This document shows positions 27,092 to 45,426 of a stretch of DNA of 64,000 bases, piece by piece. Position numbers and translations under genes: made by a program. The DNA is taken from the NCBI GenBank assembly GCA_903889265.1, contig CAISWS010000147.1, forward strand, positions 5,990-69,989, in the 5' to 3' direction. The notes below the pieces were generated by a model. That model searched no databases, had not been told where the DNA came from, and saw nothing but the letters and a program-made list of their open reading frames with translations. This DNA comes from an uncultured Bacteroidota bacterium (GTDB lineage Bacteria; Bacteroidota; Bacteroidia; Chitinophagales; LD1). Every line of letters begins with the position of its first letter. Positions within the stretch are counted from its first letter, which is position 1.

Positions 27092-27640
27092 ATGAGCAGA
27101 CTGACCGCAAAAAAAATAGTATTGGGCGTGTGTGGTTCAATAGCTGCCTATAAAGCCGCTGTTTTAACCCGCCTGCTGGTAAAGGCCGGGGCTGATGTAA
27201 AGGTTGTTATGACCACCAGCGCCACCGAGTTTATTACCCCGCTTACCCTGTCCACCCTTAGCAAACACAAAGTATTTACCGACTTTACCACCGGAGATGG
27301 CAGCAACTGGAACAACCACGTTGAGTTGGGCCTGTGGGCCGACGCCATGGTTATAGCACCCGCCAGTGCCAACACCCTGGCAAAAATGGCCAACGGCAAT
27401 TGCGACAACATGCTGCTGGCCACCTACCTATCGGCCAAGTGCCCCGTTTTCTTCGCCCCAGCCATGGACCTTGATATGTGGAAACACAAAGCCGTTAAAC
27501 GCAATATAGACTACCTGCTCAGCTACGGCAACATCCTCATCCCCGTTGAACACGGCGAACTCGCCAGCGGCTTAACCGGCGATGGCCGCATGGCCGAACC
27601 TGAGCATATTATCGGGCATTTGAGGGAGTATTTTCAGTAG
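27092..27640 (+). CDS. coaC: Phosphopantothenoylcysteine decarboxylase (CoaC flavoprotein domain only)
   Basis: 182 aa with GVCGSIAAYKA, ATEFITPLT, APASANTLAKMANGNCDN and PAMDLDMW. The ORF stops (EYFQ*) exactly where the CoaB domain normally follows. Confidence 0.85.
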   Translation: MSRLTAKKIVLGVCGSIAAYKAAVLTRLLVKAGADVKVVMTTSATEFITPLTLSTLSKHKVFTDFTTGDGSNWNNHVELGLWADAMVIAPASANTLAKMANGNCDNMLLATYLSAKCPVFFAPAMDLDMWKHKAVKRNIDYLLSYGNILIPVEHGELASGLTGDGRMAEPEHIIGHLREYFQ

Positions 27641-27812
27641 CCGTTTTACTATTGGGGCGTGCCCAGTGCTGAATAGTGCCCGCCAACTCTGCCTCATCAA
27701 ACCAATAAAAACTCTGCGGCGCGACCGGATACTCTACCGAATCTTTGTATATGTTGGATGTCGCCAACGCCAATACTAGTGTTACCAAAGCAACTTTAAA
27801 GGCCTTTTTCAA
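27609..27812 (-). CDS. Possible small secreted protein (67 aa, TTG start), doubtful
   Basis: Signal-like MKKAFKVALVTLVLALATS. Against it: a TTG start, a tail antisense to the coaC 3' end, and no recognised family. Confidence 0.25.
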   Translation of the reverse strand: MKKAFKVALVTLVLALATSNIYKDSVEYPVAPQSFYWFDEAELAGTIQHWARPNSKTATENTPSNAR

Positions 27813-27860
27813 TAATCCGGAAGGTGGGTAATCATCCGTGGTAGCATAAAACTAAAAAAA

Positions 27861-28056
27861 TATGCATCATCGCGAGACTCTGCGAAGCAAGCCCGAAGCG
27901 ATGAGGGCAAAACGCTACGCTACAACCGGCTGCAGGTAGTTCCAGGGGTACCCGCCAGGATGACCGGTCGGACGGGCTTCGTAGCAAAACTCTGCCCGCC
28001 GGCAGAATATTTCCTCTTAATGACGCGCGGGTTTTAGGATTGCCCTCATAACCCAA
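27861..28056. other. GC-rich structured intergenic element (REP-like or small RNA candidate)
   Basis: Nested complementary pairs: tcatcgc/gcgatga (27866-27872 / 27898-27904), atgagggcaa/ttgccctcat (27901-27910 / 28040-28049), gctacg/cgtagc (27914-27919 / 27980-27985), and hairpin ctgcc-cgcc-ggcag (27992-28005). Confidence 0.35.
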
Positions 28057-28059
28057 AAA

Positions 28060-28890
28060 CTACGCCTGATACACCGGCTCGTTTTCAGCAGCCTTTTCCT
28101 TATTAAAGTTTTTGGCTTGCGTTTTTACGGCCTCAAATGTTTCGGTGTAGTTGGTGTGGTTGGTGCCCATCATGCGGTCCCAGAAATTGAAATATAAGCC
28201 GTAGTTGCTGGTGGCGTATTTATGGTGCATGTTGTGGTGTGTGGAGGTGTTATGCCATTTGGTAATGGTGCCCGAAGTAAAGCCCGAAGGGAACAGTTCG
28301 AAACCGGAATGGCCCATTACATTAAGGCCGGCCTGGTATAAGCCCCACGCCAGTATTGCCAATGGATGAACCGGCACTATAAAAACCAGGATAGGGAAGA
28401 TAGCCGCCTGTATAACCGCCTCGAATGGATGAAAAGCATAAGCGGCCCAAGGTGTTGGGTCGTGGCTGAGGTGGTGTATTTTATGCACGTAGGGATATAT
28501 CTTTTTCCAGTGCATAAACCGGTGGGTCCAGTAAAAGTAAAAGTCGTGGGCTACTATAAACACCAGTACGGAAAACACAAAATACGCCCAGCTGTGTGCA
28601 TGTATATCCATGTACATTCGGGTGTAGCCGTGGCGGTAGCAGGCAAAGACAAAAACGCCGTTCAGCGCAAAAATTACTAACGACAGCAGGGAGTATCTTA
28701 ACTCGCGCCACATATGTTTTGTAGCGGGAAATTTTTGCTGAATTTTAAACCGTACAAATATTTTTCTGCCCAAAACATAAAACACAAGAAAGGTGATTCC
28801 GGCAAAAAGAAAGTAGCGCATGGTTTCAGCGCTAAAGTCCTGCATAAAATCGTGCAGAAATTTCTGCCATACAGAGGTTTCCAGTAACAT
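28060..28890 (-). CDS. Fatty acid hydroxylase / sterol desaturase family membrane protein
   Basis: Three histidine boxes (HDFYFYWTHRFMH, HKIHH, HHNMHH) and four hydrophobic helices. Confidence 0.85.
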   Translation of the reverse strand: MLLETSVWQKFLHDFMQDFSAETMRYFLFAGITFLVFYVLGRKIFVRFKIQQKFPATKHMWRELRYSLLSLVIFALNGVFVFACYRHGYTRMYMDIHAHSWAYFVFSVLVFIVAHDFYFYWTHRFMHWKKIYPYVHKIHHLSHDPTPWAAYAFHPFEAVIQAAIFPILVFIVPVHPLAILAWGLYQAGLNVMGHSGFELFPSGFTSGTITKWHNTSTHHNMHHKYATSNYGLYFNFWDRMMGTNHTNYTETFEAVKTQAKNFNKEKAAENEPVYQA

Positions 28891-43590: not shown

Positions 43591-43691
43591 TTCGATAATT
43601 CGGCAATTTGTTAATGAACAGCCAATAAAATACTGATATACCCGGCTGTTTCATCATCGAATCATCACATTGCCCAATTGCTCAATTAGGG

Positions 43692-44624
43692 CTAATTCTT
43701 GATCAGCTTATCGTACTTGGTGCTATTGGTGGGGTCTATACTTCGCAGGTAGTTTGCAGCTTTTGTTTTTTCGGTAGCATCGGCTCCTGAAAATACGCCT
43801 ATCAGCTCATCGCTTTTGGCCTGGAAGAATGTTGCAATGAGAATACCGTTAGGGTTATCCTTCGAAATTTGCTGTAGCTTGTCCAGCGCATTCATAATAT
43901 TAGCACGGGCGAGGGCAGGCTTATCGTAAAAATTATCCATTCCGGCATAGTGGTAATCCCACAGGGCTTTACGGAAAGGCTCGTATTTGCTGGCTTGTAT
44001 GTTATCTATCAGCCAGTAGCGGTTGCGGGTACCATCGTAAGGCCTCCAGCCTTTGGCATCAGGGGCACTGGTGGGTACCATGTTCTTAATCTGTTCGCAA
44101 ATATTAAAATACTTGGTGCCGCCGCCTTTTGAGAAACTTTCGTAATCAAGGCCTATAATCATGTAGGCATAAAAGCCCAGTATAGACGAGAGGTTAGAAT
44201 TGTATGCTGTAGGGCTAAAATCAATTGATTGATTTTGAACGTAGGTTATTTCGCAATCCTTATCAAGGAAGTTGAACATAGGTGAATTATAGCTACTGTT
44301 AAACACCGGGCGCGATGACTGAACCGTGATAGTAGCATTGTACACGTCCTGTGCTACAGGCGGCGATAAGATTTGTATAGATATACTGCACTCAATCCTC
44401 TCTTCAGGCGAAAACACATCCGTGGTCCATGCCTTGGTATTCATATACTCGTTAAGCGCGGTTTGCATAGTTGTGAAAACTGCAGGGTCAACACCCGAAA
44501 TTTTTTGAGCGTTAACGGTTAACTGGCATTTAAGTTCCTGTGCCTGTAAGCCTGCCATTGAAAGGCACAGCATAATTACAACACTGCACAGACGAACCAT
44601 TACGGGCTTTTGAATCAATCTCAT
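43692..44624 (-). CDS. DUF4835-family protein (named T9SS PorD in some annotations)
   Basis: 310 aa with a signal peptide. It starts 1 nt after the coaB stop. This family follows coaBC in many Bacteroidota genomes (recalled synteny). Confidence 0.65.
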   Translation of the reverse strand: MRLIQKPVMVRLCSVVIMLCLSMAGLQAQELKCQLTVNAQKISGVDPAVFTTMQTALNEYMNTKAWTTDVFSPEERIECSISIQILSPPVAQDVYNATITVQSSRPVFNSSYNSPMFNFLDKDCEITYVQNQSIDFSPTAYNSNLSSILGFYAYMIIGLDYESFSKGGGTKYFNICEQIKNMVPTSAPDAKGWRPYDGTRNRYWLIDNIQASKYEPFRKALWDYHYAGMDNFYDKPALARANIMNALDKLQQISKDNPNGILIATFFQAKSDELIGVFSGADATEKTKAANYLRSIDPTNSTKYDKLIKN

Positions 44625-44625
44625 T

Positions 44626-45273
44626 TTACTTATTCCCTTCCATTATTTTAAAAACATAATCCGCTATATCGGCGGCAACTGCTGTTTTCGGTTTCAAATC
44701 AAATTTAGTGACATTTCCCTTATTATCAATGATCGTAACTTTATTTGTATCGTATTGAAAAGCCGCTCCTTTATCATTTACCGAATTTAACACTATAAAG
44801 TCAAGATTCTTTGCTGCCAGCTTGCCGCGGGCGTTTTCCATTTCGTTATCCGTTTCGAGTGCAAAACCTACCATTACCTGGCCCGGGTGCTTTAATTTAC
44901 CCAATTCGGCAGCAATGTCGGTGGTTTTAACCATTTCTATCGAAAACTCATTCTCCTTCTTTTTAATTTTTGTTGCGCTTGGGTGTTTGGGGGTGTAATC
45001 AGCCACCGCAGCGGCAAACACTATAACATCGTTTAACGTAAAATATTGCGCGCAGGTTGCATACATCTGGGCCGCAGTTTCAACATTTATTTGTAAAATG
45101 CCGGGGTTGGAGGCACTTAAATCGGTCGGCCCTTTTACCAGGGTAACTTCAAAACCCCTTTTGGCAAACTCCTCAGCTATGGCAATGCCCATTTTACCTG
45201 ATGAGCGGTTACCGATAAACCTGACGGGGTCTATAGGCTCGTGGGTGGGGCCGGCGGTTATTAATACTTTCAT
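44626..45273 (-). CDS. coaB: Phosphopantothenate-cysteine ligase (CoaB domain only)
   Basis: Starts at [29 protein letters not shown] (ATG 45271-45273), with the AAAVADYTP motif. The 42 upstream in-frame codons of the track ORF lack CoaC similarity. Confidence 0.85.
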   Translation of the reverse strand: [215 protein letters not shown]

Positions 45274-45426
45274 GATTGGGTTTGCCTTTTGAGGTGGCAA
45301 ATGTGGGGATTGTTTTTGGTGCTGCCAAACCGCGGAAGATGCTGGGCTTAATACAAACAAGCGGGCCTCCGCCCTAAATAATCCCCTTAAACCGAACAAA
45401 AAACTCTACCGTATGTTTTGCACTTT

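Follow-up and report, generated by a model that had tools for sequence, protein, structure and literature searches.

In a 64,000-nucleotide (nt) stretch of DNA from an uncultured Bacteroidota bacterium of the order Chitinophagales (contig CAISWS010000147.1, positions 5,990 to 69,989; hereafter the window, in which position 1 is the first letter), the two activities of the usually bifunctional enzyme CoaBC (Dfp) are encoded by separate genes, coaC and coaB, located 17.6 kb apart on opposite strands. This layout is very likely the product of two successive events, an old fission of coaBC and a later inversion that moved the two genes apart. The fission itself is old; from the sequences compared, it occurred in place and has been maintained across a clade of uncultured Chitinophagales. 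As the combination of a lineage-specific CoaBC fission with an ordinary inversion, this account does not overturn established knowledge.

The coaC gene is preceded by bamD and rpoZ, the start of rpoZ overlapping the end of bamD by 14 nt, and its product ends with ...HLREYFQ*. The PF02441 domain spans the whole CoaC protein (E = 2.6e-35, residues 7-179 against profile positions 1-160 of 162), and the PF04127 domain spans the whole CoaB protein (E = 1.1e-69, profile positions 5-186 of 186). The coaB gene starts with an ATG at 45273 on the minus strand and stops at 44626-44628, 1 nt before the start of porD, the DUF4835 gene. When aligned with TIGR00521, the 392-position model of the bifunctional enzyme, CoaC covers positions 2-177 (195 bits) and CoaB positions 188-391 (208 bits), the two halves together lacking only the linker of about 10 positions. 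The window therefore encodes no bifunctional CoaBC, as there are two polypeptides and each half scores below the TIGR00521 cut-off of 219.7 bits. A preliminary description of this DNA had already reported a CoaC-only open reading frame (ORF) behind bamD-rpoZ and a CoaB ORF followed 1 nt later by the DUF4835 gene; domain matches, model matches and the sequence itself confirm both.

Substrate binding by Dfp and AtHAL3a involves a PXMNXXMW motif, and their catalysis involves Cys, His and Asn residues. In the CoaC of the window, residues ~133-140 read PAMDLDMW, with an Asp at the position of the Asn of this motif, and residues ~156-170 (...ELASGLTGDGRMAEP) include ELASGL, with a Ser at the position of the catalytic-loop Cys of the plant and E. 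coli enzymes. ELASGL is also found in fused Bacteroidota relatives, and the CoaBC of M. smegmatis (PAMHTEMW) likewise carries neither the Asn nor the Cys at those places.

All the closest homologues of both proteins are stand-alone. The 120 closest homologues of CoaC have 163-183 amino acids (aa), carry PF02441 only and are 74-97% identical to it. Those of CoaB (120 of 120) have 211-250 aa, are 67-100% identical and harbour PF04127, the flavoprotein (CoaC) domain being found in none. Furthermore, 80 genome loci around CoaC relatives were retrieved and their frames read (L-numbers designate the loci or contigs of relatives). A single fused ORF was found in 59 of them and separate genes in 19, the last two being cut by contig ends. 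The fused loci belong to more distant Bacteroidota (Mucilaginibacter, Pedobacter, Sphingobacterium, Chitinophaga, Flavihumibacter, Saprospiraceae, Cytophagales and Flavobacterium) and display the order bamD-rpoZ-coaBC-porD, which the preliminary description had given for Bacteroidota genomes and which is confirmed as ancestral. The split loci all come from uncultured Chitinophagales or "Bacteroidetes" metagenome-assembled genomes (MAGs). In these loci, coaC ends with ...(E/D)YF(S/Q)* and coaB starts with MK(I/V)LITAGPT or a close variant, at positions that match those of the window. In eleven of the 19, coaB directly follows coaC on the same strand after a gap of 2-214 nt (TGA-AAA-ATG in L002, L009 being another example), two carry inserts of 1.3-1.7 kb between the genes, and in the other six coaB was not found within 10 kb of coaC.

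The markers that flank the genes separate the same two sets of loci. The BamD proteins of split loci are 45-88% identical to that of the window and align up to residue ~380, whereas those of fused loci are 29-43% identical and their alignment stops near residue 250-270. PorD identities are 44-69% for split versus 33-41% for fused loci. By these two markers, the split loci form a coherent group. Both halves are under strong purifying selection, with ratios of non-synonymous to synonymous substitution rates (dN/dS) of 0.04-0.14 for coaC and 0.08-0.10 for coaB. With 240 stand-alone homologues, intact ORFs and dN/dS values well below 1, the fission has been retained by selection and, as previously suggested, both halves are intact, presumably functional genes and not wreckage. 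A search for CoaC in a representative library was swamped by truncated fragments and is uninformative on the extent of the clade; its full-length matches were mostly fused proteins of ~400 aa, with few of ~180 aa.

The second event is documented by comparison with un-inverted relatives. With L088 and L091, the window shares only two blocks, blocks A and B of Table 1. In block A, bamD is colinear in L001, L088 and L091 (80-88% aa identity), as is rpoZ (96-100%). In L091 (CoaC 87% and CoaB 85% identical), coaC is followed after a 40-nt gap by coaB-porD-GNAT. L088 (CoaC 92%, PorD 90%) has coaC and coaB on the same strand, separated by 3.9 kb of unrelated genes that include DUF805, an ECF sigma factor and TMEM260_2. 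The GNAT gene follows porD on the opposite strand in L004-L008, L016, L088, L091 and L097. The un-inverted counterpart of the right junction was found by a photolyase protein search combined with contig look-ups, the best matches of a photolyase scan of metagenomes being only 54-63% identical and too distant for this purpose. In L179, L180 and L181, a fatty-acid hydroxylase gene (FAH, plus strand) is located directly upstream of the photolyase gene phr (plus strand), with a spacer of 92 nt in L180, whose FAH is 89% aa identical to that of the window. In these three contigs, phr is followed by Por_Secre_tail, HxlR, DoxX, (DSBA), patatin, TPR protein and S66 peptidase genes, colinear with the window from 45.4 to 55 kb. 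L179 comes from the metagenome sample that also yielded L091, the contig in which coaC and coaB are adjacent.

Relatives thus carry the adjacencies coaC|coaB and FAH|phr, and the window carries coaC|FAH' and coaB'|phr (the prime marking reversed orientation). This reciprocal swap is the signature of an inversion. An inversion of ~17.3 kb, later than the fission and cutting no gene, is therefore the likely explanation of the junctions, and would have been a single event. The segment contains the genes for FAH, isochorismatase, MFS, a Crp-like regulator, a type IX secretion cargo protein with a CHU_C domain, PI-PLC, ALDH, a TPR protein, GNAT, PorD and CoaB. The preliminary description had proposed an inversion of ~27.6-45.3 kb that split coaBC; the inversion withstands the comparison, and the split proves to be earlier and to have another origin.

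The homologies of the flanks place the breakpoints at ~28035-28057 and 45359-45362, instead of 27641 and 45300 as first suggested. On the left, homology to the sequence found downstream of coaC in L088 extends to ~28053, its first ~40 nt after coaC being also common to L094 and L001, and the FAH stop codon begins a few nucleotides further. The 26 nt closest to FAH in the L180 FAH-phr spacer are unrecognisable at this junction. On the right, homology to L097 and L088 upstream of coaB extends from 45274 to ~45358, and 45362-45426 matches the phr-proximal part of the L180 spacer. The coaC-coaB spacer would therefore have been ~500 nt long and gene-free before the inversion.

Table 1. Features of the coaC and coaB loci in the window
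Feature	Position	Strand	Basis or remark
Block A (accA-DUF6913-dapA-bamD-rpoZ-coaC)	22576-27640	+	shared with L088 and L091
bamD	25405-26637	+	PF13525, TIGR03302; in conserved block A
rpoZ (113 aa)	26624-26965	+	PF01192; also called on identical public contigs
coaC, stand-alone phosphopantothenoylcysteine decarboxylase (182 aa)	27092-27640	+	PF02441 only
Retained coaC-proximal part of the old coaC-coaB spacer	27641-28054		homology to L088 downstream of coaC, to ~28053
Degenerate palindromic repeat (REP/MITE-like)	27866-28024		aligns with the L088 element GTCATTGCGAGG...CCTCGCAATGAC
Left breakpoint interval	28035-28057		L088-type homology up to ~28053; FAH stop codon at 28058-28060
Probable inverted segment (~17.3 kb)	28055-45360		reciprocal junction pattern versus relatives
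Fatty-acid hydroxylase gene (FAH)	28060-28890 (28063-28890 in the comparison with L180), stop codon 28058-28060	-	PF04116; adjoins coaC
Block B (coaB-porD-GNAT)	45273-43099	-	shared with L088 and L091
GNAT acetyltransferase gene	43099-43590	+	last gene of conserved block B
porD (DUF4835), type IX secretion protein	43692-44624	-	PF16119; NF052317 T9SS_PorD, 343 bits
coaB, stand-alone phosphopantothenate-cysteine ligase (215 aa)	44626-45273	-	PF04127 only
Candidate Bacteroidota-type coaB promoter	45298-45329	-	TTTG 45329-45326, 20-nt spacer, CACATTTG 45305-45298
Right breakpoint	45359-45362		flank homologies
Photolyase gene (phr)	45427-46743	+	PF00875, PF03441; first gene of the un-inverted right flank

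Several observations weigh against this reading. Inside the segment, the gene order is not that of relatives in reverse. In relatives, GNAT is followed by recN-adh (L004, L006, L007, L016, L088 and L091, several of which also have clpB' and STAS beyond recN-adh), and GH26-GT2 precede FAH (L179 and L180). The genes recN, adh, clpB, GH26, GT2 and thiC were sought in the 64-kb window, and none is present. This mismatch implies at least one further rearrangement in addition to one inversion from an L088-like or L180-like ancestor. Moreover, no un-inverted genome was found that is close enough to show these 17.3 kb turned the other way, GC skew shows no reversal over 28-45 kb (the profile is weak and confounded by gene strand), and the breakpoints lack inverted repeats that would point to a mechanism. 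As for the fission, its single origin would follow from marker identities. An attempt to reconstruct one ancestral order for the 17.3-kb interior failed, recN/adh/clpB and GH26/GT2/thiC being absent from the window.

Some observations lend credit to an alternative without any inversion, in which coaB-porD-GNAT moved to phr and FAH moved to coaC independently, with an unrelated island between them. The junctions inside the segment, GNAT|TPR-protein and FAH|isochorismatase, are non-ancestral as well. Of the segment, only block B (2.2 kb) and FAH (0.83 kb) are recognisably common with relatives, the GC skew is not reversed, and the region is prone to rearrangement in the clade, recN and/or adh being inverted upstream of bamD in L015 and L009. 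However, independent moves would require that two inverted transfers coincided and were reciprocal between one pair of spacers, where a single recombination suffices, and neither a transposase or integrase nor a repeat is found at the ends. They are therefore rather improbable. In keeping with the preliminary description, which had reported neither long inverted repeats nor mobile-element genes at the junctions, a repeat search and Pfam agree, the latter giving no transposase or integrase match at the segment ends.

Far less probable still is the scenario of the preliminary description, in which an inversion of ~17.7 kb cut a fused coaBC in its linker and generated both genes in one step. The split does lie exactly at the linker, and one inversion breakpoint does fall between coaC and coaB. 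However, un-inverted relatives (72-92% CoaC identity) are already split with matching stop and start positions, and all 240 nearest homologues are stand-alone; the inversion is therefore not the cause of the split. Indeed, stand-alone coaC and coaB are native to the whole clade, in which they mostly sit side by side on one strand, a situation that had been named beforehand as contradicting this scenario. In addition, ~414 nt of old spacer, including the L088-type repeat, still follow coaC, and ~86 nt common to L097 still precede coaB. Nor do the codons upstream of the coaB ATG (HLPPQKANPI) represent the former linker, as had been supposed: 18 of these 30 nt are a lineage-specific insertion (CCACCTCAAAAGGCAAAC) and the remainder is a promoter-like box, whereas fused relatives carry linkers such as KKKELDGKK (...FFQ-KKKELDGKK-ALVTAGPT). 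A mis-assembly or a chimeric metagenome bin can be dismissed, although the window probably derives from a MAG and all its close relatives are MAGs, because both junctions recur at 99.6-100% identity (1001 nt on the left and 701 nt on the right) in contigs that come from separate assemblies of several ENA, JGI and Logan samples (L081-L087), which also settles the earlier worry about an assembly artefact.

The two-event account can be detailed as follows. The bifunctional coaBC would have broken in place in the ancestor of the split clade, whose members are mostly uncultured Chitinophagales, most simply by gaining a stop codon where the ~10-residue linker began and a new start codon just before (I/V)L(I/V)TAGPT. 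The two genes would then have stayed adjacent, often with 2-40 nt between them, an arrangement suited to co-transcription and possibly to coupled translation, and both halves would have evolved as separate, selected and presumably functional enzymes. Subsequently, insertions entered the spacer in several lineages (a palindromic repeat, gene islands, and genes of restriction-modification and toxin-antitoxin systems). In the species of the window, this spacer would have provided one breakpoint of the inversion and a FAH-phr spacer of the 92-nt class the other, and the exchange would have placed FAH, inverted, beside coaC and coaB-porD-GNAT, also inverted, beside phr.

The element located at 27861-28056, described at first as GC-rich and structured, is a degenerate palindromic repeat resembling REP (repetitive extragenic palindromic) sequences and MITEs (miniature inverted-repeat transposable elements). 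A structured RNA was considered at this place and rejected, since the fold is not significant (z = -0.7 and -0.8) and no Rfam match was obtained, either at the gathering threshold or with E <= 1. The repeat occupies matching positions downstream of coaC in the window and in L088, with the common flanks ATATGC and GCGC. The palindromic repeat of which it is a degenerate copy has ~120 nt and the termini GTCATTGCGAGG...CCTCGCAATGAC. L088 carries two copies (6207-6327 and near 7102-7416) that flank the DUF805 gene and L005 one copy in the coaC-coaB spacer (about 990-1080), the repeat being single-copy within the window.

Within the split clade, the coaC|coaB spacer is a hotspot of insertion. L094 and L001 carry a type I restriction-modification island (HsdR/S/M and others, >10 kb) downstream of coaC, L088 carries the genes of DUF805, the ECF sigma factor and TMEM260_2 at 6.4-9.9 kb, and L097 carries a PIN toxin-antitoxin pair upstream of coaB (874-1498). 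The 1.3-1.7 kb inserts are those of L006 (10546-12250) and L019 (5286-6635). Other layouts around the locus point to independent rearrangements: in L015, recN and adh_short are inverted upstream of bamD (5912-8422) instead of being downstream of GNAT, and coaB was not found in the 10 kb that follow coaC. Upstream of bamD in L009 (7342-8130), adh_short alone was detected.

The consensus of Bacteroidota sigma-A promoters is -33 TTTG / -7 TAnnTTTG. The box CACATTTG reported at 45298-45305 on the minus strand lies, as announced, 24 nt upstream of the coaB ATG, and coaB-porD is probably transcribed from TTTG-N20-CACATTTG, a predicted promoter. It had been argued that coaB would need a new promoter after the inversion. 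The box is not new, as ACATTTG also precedes coaB in L088, L097/L098 and L007; in L088 and L007, coaB is on the same strand as coaC, the contigs of L097/L098 end before coaC, and none of them shows the inversion of the window. The promoter-like box thus predates the inversion. It is absent where the coaC-coaB gap is tiny (L091, L002 and L009), which fits co-transcription in these loci. The distance from the box to the coaB ATG is 6 nt in L088 and L097 and ~28 nt in L007, the 18-nt insertion CCACCTCAAAAGGCAAAC (45280-45297, minus strand) that separates them in the window being absent from L088 and L097/L098. The 6-nt distance hints at a leaderless mRNA or at one with a very short leader.

Bifunctional CoaBC proteins (TIGR00521), such as those of E. 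coli and M. smegmatis (PDB 6TGV), are covered by the two halves of the window at positions 2-177 and 188-391, and the M. smegmatis enzyme is the best match of the window CoaC among solved structures. The fused coaBC of Bacteroidota and the coaC and coaB of the window share a common ancestral place, bamD-rpoZ-[coaBC]-porD. Unlike CoaBC, the window encodes two linkerless polypeptides. In M. smegmatis, a short loop (residues 180-189) joins the CoaC dodecamer core to CoaB and packs against both domains (PMC7794376).

Separate decarboxylase and ligase genes are also known as the streptococcal type (TIGR02113 coaC_strep and TIGR02114 coaB_strep). However, the proteins of the window score far below the cut-offs of these models (160.3 versus 261.4 bits for coaC_strep and 80.8 versus 217.2 bits for coaB_strep) and match the bifunctional TIGR00521 better; theirs is therefore an independent and more recent fission in a fused-type lineage. 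Mycoplasma iowae and some M. fermentans strains also carry separate PPCS and PPCDC genes, a separation judged to be real because it is common to all strains (PMC8721197). Like that of the window, it is a lineage-specific separation in a group that otherwise has a fused CoaBC; unlike it, the case of the window concerns another phylum and a clade of many genera or species, with genes that have in places drifted apart. In the literature consulted, no report of coaBC fission in Bacteroidota or Chitinophagales was found. A clade-wide and independent fission of CoaBC, a fusion that is otherwise nearly universal in bacteria, is highly probable; its two essential halves would since have been free to drift and are now adjacent, separated by islands or on opposite strands. 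As for the rearrangement, an ordinary inversion between intergenic sites converts A|B and C|D into A|C' and B'|D and leaves coding sequences intact, as in the window; the differences are that the breakpoints of the window have neither inverted repeats nor insertion sequence (IS) elements, and its interior is not colinear with relatives.

If this history is correct, the clade would represent a natural experiment: CoaB could do without its covalent tether to the CoaC dodecamer core, and the spacer left by a gene fission could turn into a hotspot of island insertion and rearrangement. Activities that are separately encoded and sometimes unlinked indicate that fusion is not obligatory within a fused-type lineage, and the clade offers natural stand-alone CoaB and CoaC variants for studies of assembly and regulation. 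The fission also explains the TIGR00521 scores below the cut-off and names such as "flavoprotein" or, wrongly for CoaB, "decarboxylase". More generally, an inversion beside a split gene is not necessarily what split it, the order of events being reversed here by the comparison with relatives.

Other features of the locus deserve mention. The BamD proteins of the split clade (window and L001-L027) have ~410 aa and a C-terminal extension of ~120-150 aa that is unalignable with the BamD of Bacteroidota carrying a fused coaBC. In distant Bacteroidota (L064, L065, L069, L102, L107 and L141), including Chitinophaga and Flavihumibacter, phr and porD share a strand, with phr 3-9 kb downstream; some linkage between coaBC-porD and phr may therefore be old. 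Overlapping the 3' end of coaC by 32 nt, an ORF of 67 aa (27609-27812, minus strand) has a signal-peptide-like N-terminus (MKKAFKVALVTLVLALATSN...); it has no Pfam match, and the gene calls of identical public contigs do not include it. In block A, dapA is seemingly broken into two ORFs in L001 (2653-3398), and DUF6913 and DHDPS are called as one 477-aa product in a public contig of the species of the window (sample ERZ1426847), two oddities that are possible frameshifts or assembly errors in MAGs. The only RNA genes found in the window are tRNA-Val (20891-20964) and tRNA-Arg (61144-61216). The porD locus lies between two genes for type IX secretion cargo. The first (32100-34700, minus strand) encodes a repeat protein of 866 aa that ranks as cargo by its CHU_C sorting domain; the second (46817-48442, plus strand) encodes a protein of 541 aa, for which the public gene call on an identical contig includes a Por_Secre_tail domain.

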